Part shown: positions 1,374 through 31,426 of the stretch, one piece after another
Numbering within the stretch: the first letter of the stretch is position 1
Layout: each line of letters starts with the position of its first letter
Assembly: GCA_022561215.1 (NCBI GenBank)
Contig: JADFRQ010000012.1
Location: 3,247 to 67,246 of the forward strand
DNA from: Chloroflexota bacterium
GTDB taxonomy: Bacteria > Chloroflexota > Anaerolineae > Anaerolineales > E44-bin32
DNA length: 64,000 bases
Direction: 5' to 3'
Made by a program: the position numbers and the translations under genes
The notes under the pieces: generated by a model
The model's database searches: none
Seen by the model: only the letters and a program-made list of their open reading frames with translations
What the model was told of the DNA's origin: nothing

Positions 1374-3377
1374 ATGAAATCGAAAGTTAATTCCTTTGCA
1401 AAAACCCTCGCAATATCATGGAGACTACTGACAGAGGGTGAATTATTTCTGCTTTTCCCCGAGGATGATCCGCGAGATGTGCTCGGCAAGGAAATGACGC
1501 CCGAAATTGGTGATCTTTTTTCAGGGACCGCGCCCGCCTCTCAAGTTGTGATTGGCAAACATACCTGGCGTCTGGCAACGACCAATGGATTCGATCCCAA
1601 GTTTTCCTTGCTCGCATCAGCATTAAGAGATGGTCCCTGGGATGAATTGCTCCATGGCTGGATTTCGCTGCTATCCGACTTCTCAAGAGTGGAAGATATC
1701 GCAAAGGATTTGGTCGTTGAACTCGTAAAGGCCTGGGATCGGTTAAGTTTTCTGTTCGAATTGACGAAAATTGCCGGACGTTCGTCTGGACAGGAAGAGA
1801 TGCTGCATATGATTGTCGATTCCCTTGCCGAAGTAATCGATGCCGGAGACATTATTATTAGCGTCGATTCCGTTGGGGGGAGGACAACCATTCTCTCTTC
1901 CGAAGCAGATTTTTCCATTCCTATGGAATTGTATTTAAAAATCAAACAGGCATCTTCACCCATGAGTTATTCAGATGTGAAGCGGATTTATCCTGAGGCG
2001 GAGAGGATCTACGCCGATGTCGACGATTTGATCATTGCACCGCTCCCGGCGCCTGAAGGTGCATACGGCCTGTTGGGCTTTGTTAAAACGAACAAAGGTG
2101 AATACGATGCCAGCGAAGCGCAGTTGCTTGCCTCGGTTGCAGAACATATCGGCGCGCTGATTGAAGCTTCGCAGGCGCGCCATTCGCGGGAAGATGCAGA
2201 ACGCCTAGAAAGAGAATTGTCCATTGCTGCGGATATTCAAGCCAATCTTCTCCCCGTCAGGCTGCCGGAGGTCGCGGGCTGTGAGTTAAGTGCTCATCTT
2301 CAGCCAGCTCGACGTATCGGCGGCGATTTTTACGATGTAGCACATTTGAGAACTGGCGAACCAATCCTGATGCTGGCAGATGTATCTGGAAAAGGGATGC
2401 CGGCGGCGATCTTGACCGCGGTTGTGCATGCAACATTTCATGGTGAGGCTCCGTATCAACGTGATCCTGCACAGTTGTTATCCGAAATAAATCGCTCCAT
2501 TTACCCCGATCTCGAAAAAGCACAGGCTTTTGTCACAGCTGCAGTTGCCAGGATTGATTCGGACCCGCTAAGGGTGGCCTATTCTTCTGCCGGGCATGTC
2601 GAAGCCGCCATTTGGCGCAAACGACGCCAGTGGATAGAGTTTTTGCCGGCCACAGGTTTACCGCTAGGCGTGCAACGAGTGTTAAGCTGCAGGACAAAGG
2701 AAGTTGCCCTTGATCCAGGCGATGTTCTCCTGCTCTATTCCGATGGGGTCACAGAGGCCGAGAATCGGGACGGCGAAGTGTTTGGGGCCCAAAGGCTATC
2801 GGATATAATGGAAGCCGTTCATCCGGCATCGGCGGCGGATCAGATCCTCAACATATTGAAGGCTGTGGAGACATTCTGCCGAGACCTTCCATTAAGAGAT
2901 GACTTAACAATGGTCCTATTAAGAGCCGAGGATGATGATGCAGATGAAACCATCATTCCCTTTGTTTTCTCAAGCGATTCAAATGCAATCAGTCCATTTG
3001 TGGAATGGGCATGGGGGAAAATATCGCCTTTCGCAACAGCCGGCGGAACACCCGATTTAGTCGATGAATTCACGCTGGCGTTAAGCGAAGTGGTGACCAA
3101 CCAAAGCAAACACGCCTACGATCGCTCGAGTGGTTTGATCATGGGTAGATTAAGTCTTTCGTCGAAAGAGTGGCGGGCTGATCTCTTCGATAGAGGCGAA
3201 GGATTTGACCCTTTTATAGGAGAAGAGTTTGAAATGGACCCTGATGATCCGCCCATGAATGGATATGGACTTCGAATAATTAAATCGGCTCTGGATACAT
3301 ACAAATACGAAAGGCAACGCGATAATCGAAATCATTGGACCTTGACAAAAATATTAATGGGAGAAGAAAGGGAATGA
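1374..3377 (+). CDS. GAF + SpoIIE/RsbU PP2C phosphatase + RsbW-like HATPase (anti-sigma kinase) fusion
   Basis: GGDFYD, ADVSGKG, YSDGVTE and DDLT PP2C motifs; C-terminal EVVTN...H, DRGEGFDP, GYGL. Confidence 0.9.
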   Translation: MKSKVNSFAKTLAISWRLLTEGELFLLFPEDDPRDVLGKEMTPEIGDLFSGTAPASQVVIGKHTWRLATTNGFDPKFSLLASALRDGPWDELLHGWISLLSDFSRVEDIAKDLVVELVKAWDRLSFLFELTKIAGRSSGQEEMLHMIVDSLAEVIDAGDIIISVDSVGGRTTILSSEADFSIPMELYLKIKQASSPMSYSDVKRIYPEAERIYADVDDLIIAPLPAPEGAYGLLGFVKTNKGEYDASEAQLLASVAEHIGALIEASQARHSREDAERLERELSIAADIQANLLPVRLPEVAGCELSAHLQPARRIGGDFYDVAHLRTGEPILMLADVSGKGMPAAILTAVVHATFHGEAPYQRDPAQLLSEINRSIYPDLEKAQAFVTAAVARIDSDPLRVAYSSAGHVEAAIWRKRRQWIEFLPATGLPLGVQRVLSCRTKEVALDPGDVLLLYSDGVTEAENRDGEVFGAQRLSDIMEAVHPASAADQILNILKAVETFCRDLPLRDDLTMVLLRAEDDDADETIIPFVFSSDSNAISPFVEWAWGKISPFATAGGTPDLVDEFTLALSEVVTNQSKHAYDRSSGLIMGRLSLSSKEWRADLFDRGEGFDPFIGEEFEMDPDDPPMNGYGLRIIKSALDTYKYERQRDNRNHWTLTKILMGEERE

Positions 3378-3724
3378 ATATCGAGGTTGAACACCCCAAT
3401 TCTGAAAATGTAATCGTGCGTCCAAAGGGCAGAATTGATGTTGAATCAGCCCCAATATTGAGAGATAATTTAAAATCCATTGCCAATAAATCACCGAAAC
3501 TTGTGGTAGTTGATTTGAGTGAAGTTGAGTTTATCGATAGTTCCGGTTTATCTGCACTGGTCTCCGGGCTTAAAGCATTGCGTCAAGAAGGGGGATCGAT
3601 CAGTTTATGCAGGCCCCATCCTCAAGCCCTAACCGCACTTCGTTTAACCTTGCTTGATCGCGTATTTCCAATATTTCCAAGTGTAGAGGAAGCGCTGGAA
3701 CAAGTTAATCCGCTAATGCCCTAG
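3374..3724 (+). CDS. STAS-domain anti-sigma factor antagonist (RsbV/SpoIIAA-like)
   Basis: GRID...VDLSEVEFIDSSGL with the phospho-Ser; ATGA overlap with the upstream stop. Confidence 0.9.
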   Translation: MNIEVEHPNSENVIVRPKGRIDVESAPILRDNLKSIANKSPKLVVVDLSEVEFIDSSGLSALVSGLKALRQEGGSISLCRPHPQALTALRLTLLDRVFPIFPSVEEALEQVNPLMP

Positions 3725-3733
3725 GTTCTAATA

Positions 3734-4120
3734 GTGAAGCAACGCGTCCTTGTTGTAGATGATGAAATGTATATTTGTCAAATCGTCCGCCTCGTGCTTG
3801 AGGAAGCGGGTTATGAAGTGCTCGAAGCGAATACTGCAGAATCAGGGCTAAGGATTCTTAAGGAAGCAATTCCCGACGCACTAACGGTTGATCTGATTAT
3901 GCCCGGTCTTAAAGAGCCAGAATTTGGAGGGCTCGATTTGCTCGAAGAAATGCAATTGGATCCGAGCATACGTGAAATCCCATCATTGTTGCTGACGGCG
4001 GCAGGGATGCGGGCAGAAAATGAGATTGAACGCGCGCTCGAGATCGGTGCGCGGGCGACGTTACGGAAGCCATTCAGCCAGCGCCAGCTTGTCGAAGCTG
4101 TGCATGGGCTTTTGAATTGA
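3734..4120 (+). CDS. Single-domain response regulator (CheY-like receiver)
   Basis: VLVVDD, VDLIMP, LTA, KPF. Confidence 0.9.
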   Translation: MKQRVLVVDDEMYICQIVRLVLEEAGYEVLEANTAESGLRILKEAIPDALTVDLIMPGLKEPEFGGLDLLEEMQLDPSIREIPSLLLTAAGMRAENEIERALEIGARATLRKPFSQRQLVEAVHGLLN

Positions 4121-21278: not shown

Positions 21279-22010
21279 TCATATTAAGGCTTCCAATCCG
21301 CGGTGAAGATATAATATTTGCCAAACGCGGAAGGCGGCTTCGAGCTGAATGCGCAAGGTCATCTTCGATTGGCCACTGCGGCGATCTTCAAAGTAGATTG
21401 GGCTCTCTATGATTTTAAAGCCCAATCGATGGGCGACAAACACCATCTCGATTTGAAATACATAACCCTCCGAACGTATAACCTCGAGGGGCATTTTTTC
21501 CAAGACATCGTTGCGCCACACGCGAAATCCGCCGGTGCAATCATGAATGGGTAACTTTAAGATAGCCCGCGCATAGGAATTCCCAAATCTGGAAAGGAGT
21601 TTGCGACCCATCCCCCAGCGATCATCCAAACTACCACCTTCAATATAACGTGATCCGATAACAAGTTCATTTCTTGTAATATGTTCTAAGAAACCAGGCA
21701 GGTAACTTGGCGAATGGGAAAAATCGCTATCCATTTGGACAATTATTTCGGCATTTTGCTGAAAAGCGAATTTAAATCCAGCGATATACGCGGATCCTAA
21801 CCCGAGCTTTTTCTGGCGATGAATTACATCCATTTTGCCAGGATTGCGAGCCGAAATCTGCTCGGCAAGCTCGCCCGTTCCATCAGGGGAGCCATCATCA
21901 ACAATAACAATATTTAAATCCGAGAATGAAAGCGACCACAATTCCGTGGTTATTTGGGTCAGGTTTTCGACCTCGTTGTACGTGGGGAGTATGACGGTAA
22001 TGCGGGTCAT
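21279..22010 (-). CDS. Polyprenol monophosphomannose synthase (GT2, DPM1-like)
   Basis: PTYNE, DDGSPDGT, GLGSAY, MDSDFSH, GSRY, DCTGGFR, GYVFQIE. Confidence 0.9.
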   Translation of the reverse strand: MTRITVILPTYNEVENLTQITTELWSLSFSDLNIVIVDDGSPDGTGELAEQISARNPGKMDVIHRQKKLGLGSAYIAGFKFAFQQNAEIIVQMDSDFSHSPSYLPGFLEHITRNELVIGSRYIEGGSLDDRWGMGRKLLSRFGNSYARAILKLPIHDCTGGFRVWRNDVLEKMPLEVIRSEGYVFQIEMVFVAHRLGFKIIESPIYFEDRRSGQSKMTLRIQLEAAFRVWQILYLHRGLEALI

Positions 22011-22183
22011 GGATTCTTATCGAAGCGCGCCATAGTGTGCACCACAACATAACGCGGCGCGAGCGAAAAAAATCTAAACTTTCTTGGATTGGGACCGTAT
22101 ACCTTCTTCAAGTTTTTGATGGGGAAAAGCATCTTTAATTCGAGGGTGTGGCTAGCGCGAAGCGTACCTTGGAAACATGCGGA

Positions 22184-22555
22184 TTAAATCATCGCCGTAA
22201 GATCATCTGTTGTTCGATGCATATCTAAGAAAAGCAGACCAAGTTTCGCCTGTTTTCTTGCCAGCACAGTTAACACTGCTTCGCTGCCAATGGACATCAA
22301 GATTACGAACCCACTTTCGCCGCGGATATACACTTGATCAAGTTGGCCTCTTCCCAATTCTGATGCGATACGCTCGCCAAGCGAAAGCATTGCTGCGGAC
22401 ATTGCCGAAACGCGGTCTTCCTCAACATCTGCAGGCAATGCGGAGGCCATCGTTAACCCATCAACACTTATCACCGCCGACGCCTCGACATCGGGAGAGG
22501 ATGATTGCAAATCCCGCAGACGATCCACCATAAGTTCAGTGCGCGATTTTGTCAA
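22184..22555 (-). CDS. Roadblock/LC7 domain protein (MglB-like)
   Basis: SVDGL...EDRVSAM...ELGRG...KLGL; GGAGGAG before TTG at 22555. Confidence 0.9.
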   Translation of the reverse strand: MTKSRTELMVDRLRDLQSSSPDVEASAVISVDGLTMASALPADVEEDRVSAMSAAMLSLGERIASELGRGQLDQVYIRGESGFVILMSIGSEAVLTVLARKQAKLGLLFLDMHRTTDDLTAMI

Positions 22556-22728
22556 ATCTGTGCTCCTCCGCAATAGTGTTTTCCAAACTTATTTGACTGA
22601 CGCTAAGAAGCATAGCGATTTTTCTCTGACAGGCAAGCATGGGAGACCTCGATATTTTGCGCTATAATGCTCGATCGCCGGGAGGCAGCGGGCCTTCCGA
22701 AACCACTATTTGATACTTGGAGAAGCAT

Positions 22729-23391
22729 ATGCCAGAGTGGCTTGAGACGGAAATTATTTCTATTCTTACCGACCTTTTTCAGACGATAGGTTGGGGAGGT
22801 GTTCTCGGTATCATGGCACTTGAAAGCGCCAATATTCCCATCCCCAGCGAAGTCACCATGCCGTTGGCGGGTTGGTTACTGGTGGAAGATGTCGGCGGAA
22901 CGGCGCTGCAGTCGATTTGGTTGGGGGGTCTGTGGGGTGGAATTGGATGCACCGTGGGATCACTCGCCTCGTACGCGCTCGGTGCCAGGGGTGGCCGTCC
23001 ATTCCTCGCAAAGTATGGAAAATATTTAATGATCAGCCCACACGATCTTGAGCTCGCCGATAGATGGTTTGCAAAATACGGTGATCGGACGGCATTTTTC
23101 TCGCGCTTGCTTCCAATTGTTCGAACTTTTATCTCATTTCCGGCAGGGGTTGCAAGAATCCCCTTGAGGCCATTTCTTATTTATACCTTCATAGGATCTT
23201 TTATTTGGACCGCGGGGCTTTCGTATGGAGGTTTTGTTTTTGGCTCGCGCTGGGAGGAACTAAGAGCAGTAATGCGCCCCTTTGATATCCCCATTGCAAT
23301 CGTCATTCTCATCGGGCTTAGTTTTTATATCTATCATCACGTGCGCCGAGGAATTCAATCCAAAGCAGAGGATGCAACCCCTCGGTCTTGA
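22729..23391 (+). CDS. DedA family membrane protein
   Basis: ESANIPIPSE, RLLPIVRTFISFPAG. Confidence 0.9.
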   Translation: MPEWLETEIISILTDLFQTIGWGGVLGIMALESANIPIPSEVTMPLAGWLLVEDVGGTALQSIWLGGLWGGIGCTVGSLASYALGARGGRPFLAKYGKYLMISPHDLELADRWFAKYGDRTAFFSRLLPIVRTFISFPAGVARIPLRPFLIYTFIGSFIWTAGLSYGGFVFGSRWEELRAVMRPFDIPIAIVILIGLSFYIYHHVRRGIQSKAEDATPRS

Positions 23392-24563
23392 ACCTCCAGC
23401 ACCCGAGGGCTTAATCTTTTTGCGATGCGGGGCAGTGCGAAGATGGCGATGATGACCATCCCCACAATTGCGATTGGCAATGCGTTTTCTAGCAGCCGAT
23501 AGGCCTGCGTAACAGAATCTTCCACTTTGGCGCCTTCAAGAATCGCAAGGCTGATCGCAATCGCATTCCACAGTCCATGAAAAGCGACAGCAAGAAAATA
23601 ACCTAATCCCAGACGACTCCAACGTTTGCGAACGATCCCCTCTGCCAACCCCCAAGTGGCTATACCTGTTGTAAAAGCATGCATTAAGGTTGCCCCTGCG
23701 CGGGCAACCATGACGGCAAGCCAGGCATCTGTCTGTTGGGAAAGCAGAATTCCCTCGATCAATCCGTAGGAAGCGCCGCCAATCACGCCACTTAAGAAGG
23801 CTTCTGCCGGGGACAATCCGCGTCGTAACAGTGGCCAAATTACCATTGTTTTAAGCGCTTCTTCCAGCAGTGGCACAAGCAGCGAAACAAAGCCGAAGAT
23901 CAGCGCAAGCACCCAGGGCATTGCCATCAGCAGTTCGGTAACCTCTGTGATCTCTGAAGAGGATAGATTTGCGAGCAGATCCAAGAGCGCACGACCCTCA
24001 ATCGAGCCCGATGCTCCCAACACGAAGAGCAGCAGCACGGGGATCAATAAAATAATCTCACTGAAAAACGCAAAAAAGGGGACCGCCCACAGACCGACGG
24101 TAAATTGGCCCCACAACCTGCGTTTCGAAAGGGCAGGACTATGTTTTCGGACGAGCAATATTGCAAAGGTGCTCGATCCACAAGCGCCCAAAATTTGTGC
24201 TGCCGGTCCCAGGATATTGGGAAATAGGCCTGCATTGAAGCCGATAAAGCCCAAACCAAGCGCAATGGGGAAAACCGTGACGGGAATTAGCGCTGCCGCT
24301 CTGGATATTGGCCGCCGCGCATCCCGCATGCCCCGCAGACTGCGAAATCCAAATAGAACTGCCGGGACGCCGGCAAGTGACAGAAAGATAAAAATTACAA
24401 ACCATGTTGCAGTTTGAGAGGTGAGCTCAGGATTTCCCATAAGCAACGAGATCACTGAAAATGCCCCACTTAACATGGCGATTCCCAGGGTGATCATGCT
24501 CCCGGCTATGGCAAAGATGAAGAACCACAAATCGGAGGATCTGGCTTTTCGCGGAATAGTCAT
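23355..24563 (-). CDS. PrsW family glutamic-type intramembrane protease
   Basis: Multi-TM; EEALK, GLIEG, HAF, HGLWN. Confidence 0.8.
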   Translation of the reverse strand: MTIPRKARSSDLWFFIFAIAGSMITLGIAMLSGAFSVISLLMGNPELTSQTATWFVIFIFLSLAGVPAVLFGFRSLRGMRDARRPISRAAALIPVTVFPIALGLGFIGFNAGLFPNILGPAAQILGACGSSTFAILLVRKHSPALSKRRLWGQFTVGLWAVPFFAFFSEIILLIPVLLLFVLGASGSIEGRALLDLLANLSSSEITEVTELLMAMPWVLALIFGFVSLLVPLLEEALKTMVIWPLLRRGLSPAEAFLSGVIGGASYGLIEGILLSQQTDAWLAVMVARAGATLMHAFTTGIATWGLAEGIVRKRWSRLGLGYFLAVAFHGLWNAIAISLAILEGAKVEDSVTQAYRLLENALPIAIVGMVIIAIFALPRIAKRLSPRVLEVQDRGVASSALD

Positions 24564-25831
24564 CGAGACTCGACGCTCACAGTTTTGATGAATGCCTGAG
24601 GAGGTTCGAGAATATCGTCAAGTGGATCACGTTTTTCCAGGGAGGAAAGCAGTTCAAGGCCATCAATCACTCGTCCAAAAATTGTGTGCTGGCCGTCAAG
24701 TTCCGGCAACGGACGGAGTGTGATAAAAAACTTGCTTCCATTTGAATCCGATCCGCTGTTGGTGATTGCCACCATGCCAACTTCGCCAAAATCTAATCGC
24801 GGGTCGATTTCCAACTGGTAATGATATCCGGGATCACCAAAGCCGGTTCCACTTGGATCTCCCGTTTCTGCCAATACATCTTCAATAACCCTTATGAATC
24901 CATTCCCGTCAAACCAACCCTCATTCTGCAGGAACAGAAAACTGTTTACTGCAAGAGGCGCAGAATCGGGGTAAAGTTGAATGACGATCTCTCCGATATT
25001 GAGGTGAAGTCTGACAATCAAATCACTTCCGGCGGAAAGCTTCATTGGAGGATAAGCAGCAAATTGACGATTTTCATGGATTTCGAGGCGCACAAATGCT
25101 TCGAGAACAGGCAATTCAGGAGCCAGCGGAAATAGCTCATCATTTAGGAAAATGGCCGGTGTTCCGGTGAGACCCGAACTCAATGCTGCGGTGAAGGCTT
25201 CTTCCATCAATGCTGAATAACGCCCAACCGCGAGATCATCATTAAATTTATCGATGTCGAGATCAAGCTCAATAGCGGCGATGGATAACCACCCTCTAAA
25301 CGCGTCCGGGGAAAGGTCTACCCACTCATCCCATCTTTCAAACAAGATATCGTACATGGGCCAAAACTTGCCCTGCGCGCCGGCAGCTTCGGAGGCCTGC
25401 CCTGCCAACGAGGCTTTGTCGTGGATGGATAGAAGGGGAAAATGGCGGAAAATGACACGCAGATCATCTGGATGAAGCGCTTCGAGCTGCGCCAGCACGG
25501 GCGCAAATTGAGCACAAAATGGTCATTGAAAATCCGAGTAAAACACGAGAGAAACTTGGGCGCTTGAGGGACCCTTACTCCACTCATTGGCGCTGATGGC
25601 TGGTATGGGAGCAGCAGTGGGAAGAGAACTTGCGGGCGGTAGGGTCGCCGTTGGGGGAAGTTGGGTCGCGGTGGGCCCGAGAACTACCGGGCTTCTGGAA
25701 ATCGTCGCTGTGGTAGCCGCAGGAGTTTGTGGACTCGGCGAACACCCATAGATGAAAATTGCGATGCCCAGTGCAATGCACGACCGGGGCAATTTTCTCA
25801 ATTTTGACTTTGGATCAATCGTCATAGACAT
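24560..25831 (-). CDS. Predicted selenoprotein: lipoprotein DsbA-like thioredoxin (UPFC) fused to cyclophilin-type PPIase, 423 aa with Sec103
   Basis: ORFs 25523-25831 and 24560-25498 are in frame. The junction reads YSDFQ-TGA-PFCAQFAP, followed by FRHFPL and GTP (DsbA), then FIRVI, GDPSGTG, NGSKFFI and HTIFG (cyclophilin). Lipobox IYGC. Confidence 0.88.
25488..25505 (-). promoter_or_regulatory. Candidate bacterial SECIS hairpin
   Basis: mRNA UGCGCC-CGUGCU-GGCGCA; apical loop begins 23 nt after the UGA, with G at loop position 2. Confidence 0.7.
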
Positions 25832-26208
25832 CTCGTCGATGGGATTCGGACGTATCTTGTGATCTCATTCTAAATTTCTACCAATTGGCCAAAATTTACC
25901 CCAAATGAAAGTGGTTTCCATCAAAGCATGCTCCATGAGATTAGGCGAAGAGGAGCACACTTTTACCCTCCTGGGATGCGCTGCCTGCCCAAGCGTTGCG
26001 TGCTGGTGTAGGTTTTAGCATTCGCGAGCTACCCATTATCTGGATAAATCTTAGACGTGATAGGACAAAACGCGGTTTAATCCTGCAGCGGATTCGGAGT
26101 GAATCTCGCGGAATTGTAGCAGGTTTTATTGCGCTGCGTAGTTATACAGCTCCAGCAAAAGTGCAAACCTTGTCACCTCCATATGCATGCGGTATGCTTT
26201 GATCCTAT

Positions 26209-26302
26209 GGGGGTGGTTGGGTCCCGGTGGGCTCCACGGTCTTCAAAATCGCTGGCGGGTCGCACAGCGGGCCGCGGTGGGTTCGACTCCCACCCACTCC
26301 CG
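26209..26302 (+). tRNA. selC: tRNA-Sec (anticodon TCA)
   Basis: 8-bp acceptor GGGGGTGG/CCACTCCC; 6-bp D stem with 4-nt loop; loop CTTCAAA; long variable arm; GGTTCGACTCC; G discriminator. Confidence 0.92.
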
Positions 26303-26323
26303 CTTGAGTAATTTGGGGCAAAT

Positions 26324-27550
26324 ATGCAACAAGATTCTCCACAATTGAATATTCAGCAATCCGAAGATCAACTCCTACGATCCGTGCGCGCGGTTATGCG
26401 GGTGGAGGAAGTGACCCACGGAAGTCCAGGCGATGACTTTGTTGTTCGCTTTCGAGGAAAAATATTGGGGGATTCGGAAGCTGCTTATGAGCGCTTGAAC
26501 CCGGTTTTCTCTAAGCAGGGGATGACGCTGCTATTCCGTGAAGAGGATAGTGAGCATTTTGTGCAAGGAATTCCTGAGCTTGAGAAGCCCAAGCCTTCAA
26601 ACCCATCGATAAACGTCCTTCTCTTTATCTTGACCTTATTTAGTGTCTTGACGGCAGGTGTCCTTTATTCACTCGAGGATATCGCCATAATCGAGGAAAG
26701 GGGCCTGATCCTGGGCATTCTTTCGCAGATCCCGATCGGCATTCCATTCGCTTTTAGCCTCTTGTCAATCCTTTTGGCGCATGAATTCGGCCATTACCTC
26801 GCCGCACGTTATCACAAGGTCCCGGTCTCGCTACCCTACTTTCTTCCTTTCCCGGTAAGTTTATTCGGAACCCTGGGTGCATTCATCAAGCTCAAGGCGC
26901 CGCCAAGAAATCGTAATGCAATTCTCGATATCGGCATTGCCGGTCCGCTGGCGGGAATGGCAGTCGCCATTCCAATTCTTTTCTTGGGGCTGGTACTTTC
27001 GGAGGTTAAGCCACTTCCGCCGACAGCCTTTGCAATGCAAGGTACCACCCTCGAGGGAAACTCGCTTCTTTACCTGGGAGCAAAATTCATCGTTACCGGG
27101 CAGTTGCTGCCGGCCCCCGCCGATTACGCCGGCCTGAACCCGGTGTTGTATTGGATTCGTTACTTTTTTCTCGGGCTTCCCACACCAATCGGCGGCACCG
27201 ACATTTTGCTGCACCCTATCGCCTGGGCGGGTTGGGCAGGATTGTTAGTGACGGCACTTAATCTTATTCCGGCCGGGCAGCTGGATGGGGGCCATGTGAT
27301 GTATGTGCTTCTAGGGCAAAAAGTTCGCCGGACATGGCCGTTCATTGTGGTTTTGCTGATCGGGCTGGGGGTTGTCTGGTCTGGATGGTACCTCTGGGCG
27401 GCAATGATATTCTTTATGGGCCGAACCCATGTGCAGCCTCTTAACGAGATAACGCCGCTGGACAATCGAAGAAAATGGATTGCCATTTTTGGATTGTTGG
27501 TCTTTATCCTCGTCTTTACACCGGTCCCTTTGAGAAGTTTCCTTAATTAA
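26324..27550 (+). CDS. Site-2 protease (peptidase M50)
   Basis: HEFGH, IAGP, NLIPAGQLDGG. Confidence 0.9.
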   Translation: MQQDSPQLNIQQSEDQLLRSVRAVMRVEEVTHGSPGDDFVVRFRGKILGDSEAAYERLNPVFSKQGMTLLFREEDSEHFVQGIPELEKPKPSNPSINVLLFILTLFSVLTAGVLYSLEDIAIIEERGLILGILSQIPIGIPFAFSLLSILLAHEFGHYLAARYHKVPVSLPYFLPFPVSLFGTLGAFIKLKAPPRNRNAILDIGIAGPLAGMAVAIPILFLGLVLSEVKPLPPTAFAMQGTTLEGNSLLYLGAKFIVTGQLLPAPADYAGLNPVLYWIRYFFLGLPTPIGGTDILLHPIAWAGWAGLLVTALNLIPAGQLDGGHVMYVLLGQKVRRTWPFIVVLLIGLGVVWSGWYLWAAMIFFMGRTHVQPLNEITPLDNRRKWIAIFGLLVFILVFTPVPLRSFLN

Positions 27551-27687
27551 GTGTTCTTACTACAATCCTTTGCTTGCGCTAAATAATGACGATGGTTGGG
27601 GAAACACCTCCTCGGCGGATGTCTCACCCACATTTCGCATGTTGAAAAGCACACAGCTGGAATGAAAAAGCGAAGCGAGGATGTGTG

Positions 27688-28164
27688 TTACGCCGCGAAT
27701 TCCCCGTTTAATTTCTCTAGAACTTCCTTGCTGTGACCTTTTGGGCTAACTTTTTCGAAAACAGACTCAATGATCCCTTGTTTGTCGATAATGTAAGTCG
27801 TTCGTTTGATGCCCATGAATTCGCGTCCGAAAAATTTCTTTTCCACCCAAACGCCATACAGTTCACTGACCGCGTGATTCGAATCGGCAAGGAGAGTGAA
27901 GGGTAAATTGTACTTCTTGATAAATTTGGCCTCATCTTGCACGTTATCATGACTGACCCCTATTATTACGGCCTCTCGATCGACATACAAGCGATGGTCA
28001 TCTCGAAATTCACATGCTTCTACAATACATCCAGGTGTGTCGGCACGCGGAAAAAAGTAGAGCACAATTTGTTTGCCAAGATAGTCCGATAACCGAACGT
28101 TATCTCCTGCTTGATTTTGCAGTTCAAATTCGGGTGCGATCGTGCCGACTTCAAGGATCGTCAT
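27688..28164 (-). CDS. bcp: BCP/PrxQ peroxiredoxin
   Basis: YFFPRADTPGCIVEAC. Confidence 0.9.
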   Translation of the reverse strand: MTILEVGTIAPEFELQNQAGDNVRLSDYLGKQIVLYFFPRADTPGCIVEACEFRDDHRLYVDREAVIIGVSHDNVQDEAKFIKKYNLPFTLLADSNHAVSELYGVWVEKKFFGREFMGIKRTTYIIDKQGIIESVFEKVSPKGHSKEVLEKLNGEFAA

Positions 28165-28200
28165 AGTAGTGGGACTCCAGCGAATTATTTTTGAGGGATG

Positions 28201-30180
28201 TTAAGAGAAAGAAGCAACAAGCTTGCCCATTTCACGCGTATCATAGCCAGGAATGGCATGGACCTCCTCACGAAATTGCAGCGACGCTAAAAGGTCAAAC
28301 AAGGGAGTTAATAGGGTCGAGTCGGAGAATTCATTCGGTATGATAAGGTCATAACGTTCCTCAAAAAGAGGAATAAAATCGAGGGCAAGCGCATTGGCGG
28401 CGGCCAGAATTCCCAAACCACAATCTGCTCTTCCTGAGGCAACTGCCGCTGCCAGCGTCATGTGTGTATATTCTTCCCAGGCATATCCATTGATTTCTTC
28501 TCCATTGATGCCCAATTCCGCCAGATGAAAGTCGAGCAACAGACGAGTTCCCGAACCTCGTTGCCGGTTGACGATATGAATTTCAGGATCGCGAAGATCG
28601 TCCAGCGACTTTATTTTTCTGGGATTACCCTGGGGAATAATCAGGCCTTGCTGGCGATAAACCAGCGTGATCACATCCAACGCAGTGCCGGGGAGATATT
28701 TTTTCACGTAGCTCAAATTGTATTCGCCGGTTTCTGGATCCAAGAGATGGCTCCCGGCAGCATGTGCTTCCTTGCGCTGCAGCGCAATTAGACCTCCCAT
28801 GCTTCCTATATTCGCGGAAGAAACACGAACGTTGCGCCGTGCAAGGTGCTGTGCAATCAAATCGATTGTCAGATCATGTGAGCCGAGAAAAACGATGGTC
28901 CGATCAATCTCCTCCGGTGTTCGGTATAGATAAACAGTCACTAGCTCCCCGGCCTGCATTCCCTGCACCCCACTGGGGATGCGAACAATTCCATCGGCGC
29001 GTACCAGCGACGTGATCGTGCCCGCCCCGCGAGACAATGGCGAAACAACCGTCCGTCCACCGACTTTCCCGACCGTCACCCTCAAATATTCATCATCTCC
29101 CATTTTGGAGTGAACCTTTCGGGTAAGGTTGGCTTTAAGCGTTTGTTTTTGATGCGCAGGTCGCCCCAACCATTTCGCCAGCAGAGGCTCTACGAAAATT
29201 TCGCCCGTCAACGCAGCCGAGACCGGATAGCCGGGAACACCGATTACGGGGATGCTTCCCCTGCCAGATTCTTCACTCGCTGATTGAAAATTTACCCTCA
29301 GCATACCCAAGATCACCGGGTGACCGGGGCGTATGGCAACTCCGTGGACCAGAAGCTTGCCTAAGCTGGCAACCACTTGGGATGTGAAATCTTCTGAACC
29401 TGCAGAAGAGCCAGCATTAATCAGCAGCAGATCAAAATTCTGCAGGTTTTCCTCAATCACACTTGAAATTTGGTTGAAATTGTCCGGGACGATCGGCAAG
29501 CGAGTCGATCTTCCGCCCCATTCTTCAATCTGCGCGCTTAAAACCAGCGAGTTGTATTCGATAATATCTCCAGGATTTGGATCGCTGCCGGGGGGTACAA
29601 GTTCTGACCCTGTGGGGAGTATGGCGACGCGCGGCTGTCGGCAAACATTAACAGTCGCGTGCCCGCTTCCCGCCAAGGCACCCAGGTCGACCGGGCGTAT
29701 CCTATGGCCGGCGGGAAGCAAAAGCTCCGTGGCCACGATGTCTTCACCTAGCGGACGTACATGGCTCCACGGTGCAACGGCCGACCGCAGTTGAAAAGCC
29801 TTCCATTCCGAGCGTTTTTCTTCCGGTTCCAGGGGTTCGACGTGTTCAATTGGGATCACGGCATCGGCCCAATCGGGGATGGGATCGCCGGTATCGACAT
29901 AGACGCATTGTGCCCCTATTGCAATCATTTGCGGCGAGTTTTCCGAAGCGCCTGCTGTTGTGGAAGATGGCAGCGCAAAGCCATCCATCGCTGCGCTGTG
30001 GTAGTGAGGGGAGCTAATTTTGGCCCAGATAGCTTTCGCCGTGATGCGGCCGTTGGCATGCTCCAGTGGAATTTCTTCACCTTCCAGCGCATGCCACAAT
30101 CCGGCCATTTTTAGCTCATCAACAAAGAGAGACCACGCTTCGGAAAAGGGCACATCGTGAAGGTAAATTGACTCACTCAT
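28201..30180 (-). CDS. moeA: Molybdopterin biosynthesis protein MoeA fused to a C-terminal PBP (LysR-substrate-like) domain
   Basis: SAAMDGF, TGSEL, RPGHP, PGYPVS; C-terminal GSHD, NRQRGSGTR. Confidence 0.9.
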   Translation of the reverse strand: MSESIYLHDVPFSEAWSLFVDELKMAGLWHALEGEEIPLEHANGRITAKAIWAKISSPHYHSAAMDGFALPSSTTAGASENSPQMIAIGAQCVYVDTGDPIPDWADAVIPIEHVEPLEPEEKRSEWKAFQLRSAVAPWSHVRPLGEDIVATELLLPAGHRIRPVDLGALAGSGHATVNVCRQPRVAILPTGSELVPPGSDPNPGDIIEYNSLVLSAQIEEWGGRSTRLPIVPDNFNQISSVIEENLQNFDLLLINAGSSAGSEDFTSQVVASLGKLLVHGVAIRPGHPVILGMLRVNFQSASEESGRGSIPVIGVPGYPVSAALTGEIFVEPLLAKWLGRPAHQKQTLKANLTRKVHSKMGDDEYLRVTVGKVGGRTVVSPLSRGAGTITSLVRADGIVRIPSGVQGMQAGELVTVYLYRTPEEIDRTIVFLGSHDLTIDLIAQHLARRNVRVSSANIGSMGGLIALQRKEAHAAGSHLLDPETGEYNLSYVKKYLPGTALDVITLVYRQQGLIIPQGNPRKIKSLDDLRDPEIHIVNRQRGSGTRLLLDFHLAELGINGEEINGYAWEEYTHMTLAAAVASGRADCGLGILAAANALALDFIPLFEERYDLIIPNEFSDSTLLTPLFDLLASLQFREEVHAIPGYDTREMGKLVASFS

Positions 30181-30184
30181 CGTG

Positions 30185-31426
30185 CTAAAAGAGCTCCACC
30201 ACTACGTCGGATCCCGCGGGAAGGCCCGTAACCTGGGGCGGGATCCGAATTAATCCCCCGGCACGAACAAGCGTAAAGATTAAATTCGATCGACCAAATA
30301 CCGGCTCAGCGATCCAATGATCATCTTCTCGAACGAGGTTGACAGGAATATAATCTTCCCGCCCGGCTTGTGAGTTGAGATTAATGCTTAGTTTGGCGAT
30401 CAATTGTGCTTCCGGAGCAGCCCCCTCAATTCCAAGCAGATGTTGAATTAACGGACTTACGAAGATTTTCGCGATCAGCAGCGCGCTGACTGGATTTCCT
30501 GGCAATCCAATGATCGGAATTCCATCGGCAACGGCCAGGATTGTGGGCCTGCCCGGCTTAATCGCCACGCCGTGAACCAGGACCCCGGGTTCCCCCAGTT
30601 TCTCGATGACATTCGATGTGAGATCATGTACACTCACTGATGATCCCGCAGTAATGATAACCACCTCATCTTCCAGGTGGGCTTTTTTTGCAACTCCGAG
30701 CAGTGCCTCGAAATTATCGGGCACAATTCCCCAGCGATGAGGCTCTCCTCCGGCTTTTTCAATCAAGGAGGAAAGTGTATAGGAATTTACATCGCGAACC
30801 TGGCCCAATTGCGGATCTACTTCAGGATGTACAACTTCGTTTCCTGTGGAAAGGATGCCTATGCGGGGTTTTTTAACGACCTCTACATCGACAAATCCAA
30901 GCGCCATTAACCCTCCAATTTCTTGCGCGCGAAGAATAGACCCAGAATGTATCACCACATCCCCCTGGTTTACATCCTCTCCCTTCAGCAGGACGTTCTC
31001 GCCCGGAGCAACGGCCTTTAACACTTCAACCTCGTTTTCGCTTATTCTTTGCGTATCCTCAATCATCACGACTGCATCGGCCTCATTGGGGAGCATTCCA
31101 CCGGTATGAATGACGATTGATTTTGTTGGCATAAGGCTTGGCGGAGGTTTGCGGCTTCCCATCTCGATCTCGCCGATGAGATTTAGATAGACAGGAAGTG
31201 TAGATGATGCGCCAAAGGTGTCTTTCGCCAATACCGCAAACCCGTCTACCGTCGATCTCTTAAAGGGTGGCAATGGGATAGGAGCTTTAATTGCCTTTGC
31301 TAATACTCTTCCCAGCGCCGAAGCAGTCGCGATCATTTCTGCATCGCGCGTTTTTCTTTTTGGAAGGGCATCGAACAATATAGATTTTGCTCGATGCGGA
31401 GGGATGAGTTTTAGAAATTCAGGCAA
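30185..31426 (-). CDS. moeA: Molybdopterin molybdotransferase (gephyrin-like MoeA)
   Basis: STVDGFAV, TGGMLP, STGNE, KPGRP, PGNPVS. Confidence 0.9.
   Translation of the reverse strand: MPEFLKLIPPHRAKSILFDALPKRKTRDAEMIATASALGRVLAKAIKAPIPLPPFKRSTVDGFAVLAKDTFGASSTLPVYLNLIGEIEMGSRKPPPSLMPTKSIVIHTGGMLPNEADAVVMIEDTQRISENEVEVLKAVAPGENVLLKGEDVNQGDVVIHSGSILRAQEIGGLMALGFVDVEVVKKPRIGILSTGNEVVHPEVDPQLGQVRDVNSYTLSSLIEKAGGEPHRWGIVPDNFEALLGVAKKAHLEDEVVIITAGSSVSVHDLTSNVIEKLGEPGVLVHGVAIKPGRPTILAVADGIPIIGLPGNPVSALLIAKIFVSPLIQHLLGIEGAAPEAQLIAKLSINLNSQAGREDYIPVNLVREDDHWIAEPVFGRSNLIFTLVRAGGLIRIPPQVTGLPAGSDVVVELF

Follow-up and report, generated by a model that had tools for sequence, protein, structure and literature searches.

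A window of 64,000 nt from a Chloroflexota bacterium (Anaerolineae; Anaerolineales; E44-bin32; assembly GCA_022561215.1, contig JADFRQ010000012.1, positions 3,247-67,246) contains selC, the gene for the selenocysteine (Sec) tRNA, between the gene of a selenoprotein foldase and that of a metalloprotease of the M50 (site-2-protease) family. The interval around selC is probably made of two separate conserved transcription units, which abut only through family-level gene order. Unit A comprises the foldase gene and the gene of a PrsW-like membrane protease, and unit B comprises selC and the M50 gene. A sequence-only reading of the same DNA had joined all four into one co-regulated, selenium-linked envelope system. 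The couplings of foldase with PrsW-like protease and of selC with M50 are indeed conserved, whereas units A and B are independent by synteny.

Conservation of the selC-M50 unit

The tRNA-Sec gene is recognized by the Rfam model RF01852 with 66.3 bits (gathering score 47) and by ARAGORN (tRNA-SeC, anticodon tca). The Rfam scan of positions 22000-29000 at E ≤1 returns tRNA-Sec alone and nothing else. The distribution of the pair in the order was obtained by cross-tabulating an Rfam search for selC and a protein search for M50 over the same 151 genomes. selC is present in 107 genomes, 100 of which also contain the M50 ortholog. It lies directly upstream of M50 on the same strand in 90 and within 350 nt of the start of the M50 match in 85. 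M50 is also directly downstream of selC, on the same strand, in 32 of the 38 selC loci sampled from other families, 1 further locus being too short to evaluate. Among the best 80 M50 loci in named GTDB records (metagenome-assembled genomes of Anaerolineales, Anaerolineae and Chloroflexota), a sample that overlaps with the 151 genomes, 69 show the same arrangement. The MoeA-PBP gene, which is the other flank of M50 in the window, served as a control: of 94 genomes with both genes, 13 have the two at a distance of no more than 3 kb. The selC-M50 pair is an order-wide conserved unit, and it has no earlier description in the open-access papers and preprints searched.

The two genes are probably co-transcribed, as spacing and promoter conservation suggest. 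The gap between them is at most 35 nt in 42 of 64 relatives' loci, mostly 10-35 nt, a length that leaves no space for a promoter other than within the tRNA gene. The earliest start codon available to M50 in the window is the ATG at 26324, since its frame opens only 8 nt past the tRNA. The promoter element upstream of selC recurs in the relatives as TTGyCa-N17-GGTATsCT, or with TATAAT/TACAAT, and ends mostly 7-14 nt before the tRNA gene. A promoter score of at least 8 of 12 is reached by 57 of 74 selC loci versus 12 of 198 control windows placed inside M50 genes, and a score of at least 9 by 31 of 74 versus 2 of 198. A consensus scan of the window detects no promoter-like or terminator-like site between selC and M50, and none that is promoter-like inside selC.

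Several observations weigh against a common transcript. The consensus scan could miss a promoter that lies within selC or the short spacer, and terminator-like hairpins are placed between the two genes in three relatives (L041, L067 and L091). Gaps of 50-330 nt separate selC and M50 in some relatives. Members of family f9 have a gene inserted between them, coding for a HAD-like phosphatase (L042, 12545-13421, and L077) or for a stand-alone membrane-anchored Cys-DsbA (L078, 4491-4928), and two genera of families f12 and f15 keep both genes apart. Of the sequencing runs that contain the stretch, none is recorded as RNA. Four runs labelled 'metatranscriptomic WGA', all from one study, cover genes and spacers evenly and at low depth, as DNA would, and give no support for co-transcription; the contigs of these runs break at selC, which is shared with other organisms.

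Some of these points are also those on which a frozen accident could be built, in which M50 transcription starts within or just after selC and both genes are expressed independently. A 20-nt spacer is a small rearrangement target that is seldom broken, so the tight adjacency could persist neutrally, by itself, and the long gaps, the inserted genes and the hairpins are in line with it. Relatives of selC and M50 are common in the class outside the order (128/151 and 162/201, respectively), and the adjacency is seen there in 0 of about 80 genomes with both placed (tables compared by eye). On the other hand, the short gaps that predominate and the lack of a promoter-like site inside selC of the window argue against a separate start, the other flank of M50 is largely lost in the same genomes, and the selC promoter is retained where selC itself has decayed, now directly before M50. 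A frozen accident is therefore considered unlikely, and a unit B read from the selC promoter is the preferred reading.

The decay of selC is documented in lineages that appear to have lost the Sec trait. The order includes 44 genomes without selC, 27 of which still contain M50; in one genome scored in this way selC is cut by the contig end beside M50. selA was not found in 8/8 selC-less, M50-bearing genomes tested, among them 3/3 genomes of 95-100% completeness of genus g25 and the single genome tested from each of the genera g54 and g56. Two members of g25 show different degrees of erosion at about 1880-1960 of their loci. The selC of G068 (L108) is a pseudogene in which an internal deletion of about 44 nt removes the anticodon arm, and that of G037 (L101) is almost erased, with traces only. 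Both retain the upstream promoter (GTGATAGAAT) before M50. Likewise, a TAGAAT or TAAAAT -10 box is placed 6 nt before the M50 ATG in 3 of 4 loci of g54, and g56 has a promoter of the GGTATGCTT type 12 nt ahead of the M50 start. A dependence of M50 on the selC promoter would fit this retention in selC-less lineages, since a promoter on which M50 depends is expected to be kept after the decay or loss of selC.

Two further observations concern the upstream side of the unit. In the selC-less loci L111 (G083) and L119 (G142), of one genus, M50 is preceded by tRNA-Gly and tRNA-Met genes, then a terminator-like hairpin and a promoter of the GGTATGCTT type. In L067, L068, L088, L098 and L099 (families f4, f13 and f17), a tRNA-Phe/Gly/Cys cluster is divergent on the other side of selC and the MoeA-PBP gene comes directly after M50.

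The unit might also represent a regulatory coupling, by which the level of the protease is tied to the Sec-decoding capacity or to the selenium status of the cell. The order-wide conservation and the probable shared promoter favor it, but the M50 ortholog is kept in most of the selC-less genomes of the order and is widespread in the class away from selC, its reading frame has no Sec codon, and no selenium-responsive element was identified. Such coupling is quite improbable, and a shared promoter that simply serves both genes remains the preferred explanation of unit B.

The M50 protease

The M50 protein has 408 residues, with HEFGH at 153 and NLIPAGQLDGGH at 313-324. The residues of the corresponding HExxH and NxxPxxxxDG motifs are invariant in 63 orthologs. 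The N-terminus forms a soluble alpha/beta domain of about 85-95 residues, and PDZ and CBS domains are absent. No chain of the PDB matches the protein at the sequence level. The AlphaFold model has a predicted confidence (pLDDT) of 92.4, and its best Foldseek folds are the solved site-2 proteases SpoIVFB (8vjl), MjS2P (3b4r) and RseP (7w6x), at a probability of 0.96-1.00 with weak E-values of 1.5e-3 to 3e-2 and low TM-scores, 0.16-0.30 on the query. The protein shares with these enzymes both catalytic motifs and differs from them in the N-terminal alpha/beta domain, which stands in place of PDZ or CBS domains. The genome of the window codes for four M50 paralogs, namely the selC neighbor, a PDZ-bearing RseP/RasP-type protein of 348 aa (contig C50), a CBS-type protein (C52) and a short one (C89).

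The selenoprotein foldase

The foldase frame is interrupted by a single in-frame TGA, and read-through gives a protein of 423 residues and roughly 45 kDa that contains F-Q-U-P-F-C, with U103-P-F-C106 as redox centre. Pfam assigns to it the Thioredoxin_4/DSBA families and a cyclophilin Pro_isomerase domain, the latter (PF00160) with 112.1 bits against a cutoff of 21.7. The cyclophilin part has 154 PDB sequences at E ≤1e-4, the best at 9.5e-28. The N-terminus has a K/R-rich start and a hydrophobic stretch followed by I-Y-G-C30, which resembles a lipobox. This Cys is invariant in 23 orthologs, where the majority reads 'AC'.

The foldase was searched in 60 relatives and in the window's own genome; an ortholog was found in 50 relatives, and all 50 neighborhoods were compared. 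In the 51 sequences, the window included, the position of U103 is occupied by UGA in 10, Cys in 22 and Ser/Ala/Pro/Gly/Asp in 18, and is masked in 1. Among the orthologs, 22 thus have Cys and 9 have Sec opposite the UGA of the window. The selenocysteine insertion sequence (SECIS) hairpin of the window has the stem UUGCGCC/GGCGCAG and the loop CGUGCU. A common form (UUGCGCC, a 6-nt loop CGUGYU and GGCGCAA), starting 17 nt past the UGA, is present in 10/10 Sec forms, with stabilities of about -7 to -13 kcal/mol. Compensatory changes occur among the Sec forms at three predicted pairs, two of which are within the SECIS hairpin. The hairpin is missing from most of the Cys and Ser forms, and a few of them (L043, L049 and L031) have relic-like hairpins. 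One result weighs against the element: folded alone, the SECIS region of the window is no better than shuffled sequences (z -0.29). The case for the SECIS rests on sequence comparison because the single-sequence fold is indistinguishable from the shuffles. From this comparison, the UGA is predicted to be decoded as Sec, with selenium incorporated into the protein.

The residue at the redox centre changes repeatedly. A quick maximum-likelihood tree was built from 47 rows, with 3 truncated rows and 1 masked row omitted. It requires 6 changes of the U label, and well-supported branches force at least 3 of them. Sister pairs with different residues occur, such as L016 (U) and L020 (C). As far as the aligned orthologs tell, the redox centre of the foldase is evolutionarily labile.

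Other possible selenoproteins were noted during the survey. The selD gene of the window's genome (G000:C72:75817-76746, L001) has one in-frame TGA, and its product is probably itself a selenoprotein. Another DsbA-like frame that contains an in-frame TGA lies inside a 667-aa open frame (G000:C20:665-1240), with similar matches in G027:C16 and G006:C233, and may code for a further Sec-DsbA-type selenoprotein of different architecture. The genome G040 (L036, contig C222) has a U-form foldase and selA, and neither selC (at a score of at least 60 bits) nor the M50 ortholog turned up in it; most likely, one piece bearing both was left unassembled or unbinned.

The foldase and PrsW-like gene pair

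The second gene of unit A codes for a protein of 402 residues with seven hydrophobic segments, EEALK at 234, H295 and HGLWN at 329. EExxK, E, R, H and HxxWN do not vary among 30 orthologs. The assignment has one weak point, as the match to PF13367 reaches just 30.6 bits over a cutoff of 23.5. No sequence relatives of the protein were found in the PDB. Its gene is the single PrsW-family gene of the window's genome. The stop codon of the foldase gene overlaps the start of the PrsW-like gene by 4 nt, an overlap that suggests that both proteins are made together. The same 4-nt overlap is found in 23 of the 32 loci with both reading frames delimited. Of the 46 loci of the order that could be evaluated, 36 have the PrsW-like gene directly behind the foldase gene and on its strand. 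Judged by this gene order, the two genes are a conserved pair across the order.

Relationship between the two units

The juxtaposition of units A and B belongs to a wider conservation within the family. Gene order in the family is collinear over at least 15 kb, a block that includes the genes for tRNA-Ser, a G5/3D protein, KsgA, a GT2 glycosyltransferase, a Roadblock protein, (DedA), the PrsW-like protease, the foldase, selC, M50, (BCP) and the MoeA proteins, those in brackets being variably present. selC is divergently upstream of the foldase gene in 32/32 evaluable family loci, two others being too short for this count, and it is so whether the foldase has U (5 loci), C (13), S/A/P (13) or a masked residue (1). 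In other families the juxtaposition is seen in 1 of 12 evaluable loci, there at 4.3 kb. The spacer itself is not conserved and extends to about 0.8-1.8 kb in ten family loci and to 3.3 kb in one more. The seven reading frames scanned in these spacers code for six short-chain dehydrogenases and one PNP/UDP phosphorylase, on the foldase strand (Table 1). Two family genomes, G009 (L061) and G029 (L062), are without a foldase gene; in them the PrsW-like gene is directly beside selC-M50, with the MoeA genes right after. On this synteny, units A and B abut only through family-level gene order. Their independence is argued from four facts: the juxtaposition ignores the U/C/S state of the foldase, largely fails outside the family and accommodates unrelated genes in the spacer, and the two family genomes that have no foldase gene keep selC and M50. 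The sequence-only reading had set beforehand that neighbors conserved regardless of the Sec trait and without co-expression would count against a single system, and the synteny survey finds the first half of this.

A possible common regulatory site was considered in an 18-nt inverted repeat, 83% complementary, with arms at 25920-25937 and 26186-26203. The right arm coincides with the -10 region of selC (GGTATGCTTTGAT), and the left arm precedes the foldase start by about 90-105 nt. None of 47 relatives has the motif upstream of its foldase gene, and the site was therefore rejected as a shared A/B regulator site; the repeat is probably idiosyncratic.

The two proteases could also be connected through a proteolytic cascade. 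In the sigma-W pathway of Bacillus subtilis, regulated intramembrane proteolysis proceeds with PrsW as site-1 protease, RasP as site-2 protease and RsiW as substrate. The window resembles this system in having PrsW-family and M50-family genes within 3 kb, with intact catalytic motifs. It differs in that the proteases are in separate divergent units, co-occur poorly across the order, and are not accompanied by a gene for an extracytoplasmic function (ECF) sigma factor or its anti-sigma factor. The cognate ECF sigma/anti-sigma pair that the sequence-only reading proposed to look for did not appear: the Pfam scan of the 63 open reading frames (ORFs) of the window returned no Sigma70_r2/r4, zf-HC2 or RskA domain, the rest of the genome not being searched. 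The only signalling module among these ORFs is a SpoIIE/STAS partner-switch set at 1374-3724. Moreover, the site-2 protease of the window is not of the PDZ-bearing RseP/RasP type, which is represented on contig C50.

A hand tally over the 151 genomes of the order gives 70 with both the PrsW-like protein and M50, 57 with M50 only, 10 with the PrsW-like protein only and 14 with neither, where an absence means 'not found with this query' and the PrsW-like protein was searched with an ortholog profile. The latter is matched in 80 of the 151. The disparity is clearest by family, with the PrsW-like protein in 0/12 and M50 in 12/12 genomes of f2, 0/4 versus 4/4 in f12 and 0/11 versus 6/11 in f17. Such poor co-occurrence makes an obligate site-1/site-2 partnership of the two proteases unlikely, and the pairing that the sequence-only reading had suggested is to this extent disfavored.

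One co-regulated selenium-linked envelope stress system, in which foldase, PrsW-like site-1 protease, M50 site-2 protease and tRNA-Sec act together and the proteases cut an anti-sigma factor in sequence, is highly improbable: the adjacency of all parts in the window, its retention in every evaluable family locus, the intact catalytic motifs and the Bacillus precedent speak for it, but the arrangement is indifferent to the DsbA residue, forms part of a long block with unrelated housekeeping genes, comes apart in 11 of 12 evaluable loci outside the family, lacks a sigma/anti-sigma domain in the window and a PDZ domain in its M50, leaves 57 of 127 M50-bearing genomes of the order without a PrsW-like match, and retains M50 where selC and selA are gone.

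Layout of the locus and neighboring genes

The inventory and order of genes that the sequence-only reading had given around selC were recovered in full, each checked feature being found in its place (Table 1). The spacer between the divergent foldase and selC genes, given as about 380 bp, measures 377 bp (25832-26208). M50 does follow closely behind tRNA-Sec, with a gap of 20 nt (26304-26323). The convergence of the PrsW-like gene with DedA, whose ORFs overlap at 23355-23391, and of M50 with BCP is borne out by the ORF coordinates. The remaining Sec machinery of the genome (selA, selB and selD) is on other contigs, all above the NCBIfam cutoffs.

Table 1. Features around selC in the window, followed by the genes found between foldase and selC in related loci
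Feature	Position	Strand	Evidence or remark
DedA/VTT-family membrane protein, UptA-like	22717..23391	+	Pfam VTT_dom, 78.6 bits
PrsW-family polytopic membrane protease, second gene of unit A	23355..24563	-	Pfam PrsW-protease, 30.6 bits, cutoff 23.5
Predicted selenoprotein, DsbA-like domain and cyclophilin peptidyl-prolyl isomerase (PPIase), putative lipoprotein, first gene of unit A	24560..25831	-	
Predicted SECIS hairpin	25487..25506	-	7-bp stem, 17 nt after UGA
UGA codon predicted to be read as selenocysteine	25523..25525	-	In-frame TGA, ortholog alignment
Predicted selC promoter, sigma-70-type, TTGTCA-17-TATGCT	26170..26198	+	Ends 10 nt before the tRNA
selC, tRNA-Sec, anticodon UCA, no encoded CCA	26209..26303	+	ARAGORN, Rfam RF01852
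Spacer of 20 nt between selC and M50, with GGGG Shine-Dalgarno-like run	26304..26323	+	No room for promoter or terminator
M50 (site-2-protease family) metalloprotease, second gene of unit B	26324..27550	+	Pfam, 76 bits, cutoff 27.2
BCP/PrxQ-type thiol peroxidase, Cys form	27688..28164	-	Pfam AhpC-TSA, 130 bits
Short-chain dehydrogenase gene between foldase and selC	L013:8295-9068, L015:4797-5516, L023:5031-5756, L027:2077-2805, L029:6072-6914, L035:8235-9152		
PNP/UDP phosphorylase gene between foldase and selC	L016:8286-9074		ORF at same coordinates in L020, unscanned

The DedA and BCP genes are ordinary neighbors, outside both units. DedA scores 133 bits against the NCBIfam UptA model, under its cutoff of 250, and a close ortholog (52-72% identity) is at this site in about half of the family loci, the rest having a distant DedA or none. 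A link of a DedA protein to selenite does exist in print; it was set aside for the DedA of the window, which is UptA-like and replaced in many relatives. BCP reaches 166.9 bits in the NCBIfam model PRK09437 (cutoff 140) and adjoins M50 in some family genomes only, and in 0 of the 38 selC loci of other families.

Further away, positions 1374-4120 of the window code for a partner-switching module, in which a SpoIIE phosphatase with a fused HATPase_c_2 kinase-like domain is followed by a STAS protein and a response-regulator receiver. Positions 28201-31426 hold two tandem MoeA genes, the first fused to a PBP-like domain of the molybdate/tungstate-binding type; this MoeA-PBP fused form is found in 108 of the 151 genomes of the order.

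Comparison with known systems

DsbA-like selenoproteins with a UxxC motif (PF01323, 'DsbA-like protein form 1') are known since the Sargasso Sea survey (PMC1088965) and are listed in a table of a 2026 review (PMC13188914), in the main text of which the words 'cyclophilin' and 'peptidyl-prolyl' are absent. The protein of the window shares with them the DSBA/Thioredoxin_4 fold, the Sec-x-x-Cys aligned with Cys of homologs and the SECIS after the UGA. It differs in its fusion to a C-terminal cyclophilin PPIase, in its putative lipoprotein anchor and in the probable translational coupling of its gene to a PrsW-family gene. The NCBIfam entry for the Chloroflexota 'Rcas_1661 family thioredoxin-like (seleno)lipoprotein' gives 60 bits, below its cutoff of 190. 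The ESM Atlas returned 30 named-cluster matches, of which 24 have the Pro_isomerase+Thioredoxin_4+DSBA set and one more has the same three families; the fusion clusters shown have 63-91 members, mostly from Chloroflexota. The DsbA-cyclophilin fusion is common in databases but uncharacterised. The foldase, coupled with a PrsW-family protease, is best classed as a new architecture within this known selenoprotein family.

By analogy, the selC-M50 unit resembles the known tRNA-mRNA operons. The tufB operon consists of a promoter region, four tRNA genes and tufB (PMC6134099). In both cases a tRNA gene has a promoter right before it and a protein gene behind it, with no promoter between the two genes. 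Here, however, one tRNA only is involved, tRNA-Sec is combined with a membrane protease instead of a translation factor, and co-transcription is deduced from comparative data.

Proposed mechanism and significance

In the proposed mechanism, unit A would provide an exported lipoprotein foldase, the Sec-x-x-Cys centre of which is read from UGA with the help of the SECIS. The foldase and the PrsW-family protease may then act on exported or membrane proteins. In unit B the M50 mRNA would start at the selC promoter, and tRNA-Sec would be cut from its 5' end by the tRNA-processing enzymes, as in tufB-type tRNA-mRNA operons. Selenium would enter through one Sec codon in unit A and the tRNA in unit B only, and nothing found ties A to B, PrsW to M50, or the DedA and BCP genes to either unit.

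A bolder extension, which is rather doubtful at present, is that throughout Anaerolineales tRNA-Sec is a functional 5' leader of the site-2-protease mRNA, the selC promoter and tRNA processing being one control point for both the Sec-decoding capacity and the protease. If this were true, the lineages that lost Sec would have had to keep the orphaned selC promoter in order to keep the protease.

The separation of a 'selenium stress system' into its supported parts prevents over-annotation of neighboring PrsW and M50 genes as a cascade of regulated intramembrane proteolysis. It also brings to light a highly stable pairing of tRNA-Sec and protease genes in one Chloroflexota order. Decayed selC genes and retained promoters are marks of separate losses of the Sec trait and help to trace how it is lost. 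Finally, the repeated replacement of Sec, Cys, Ser and Ala by one another among these orthologs is a natural series on the benefit of Sec to an extracytoplasmic oxidoreductase.

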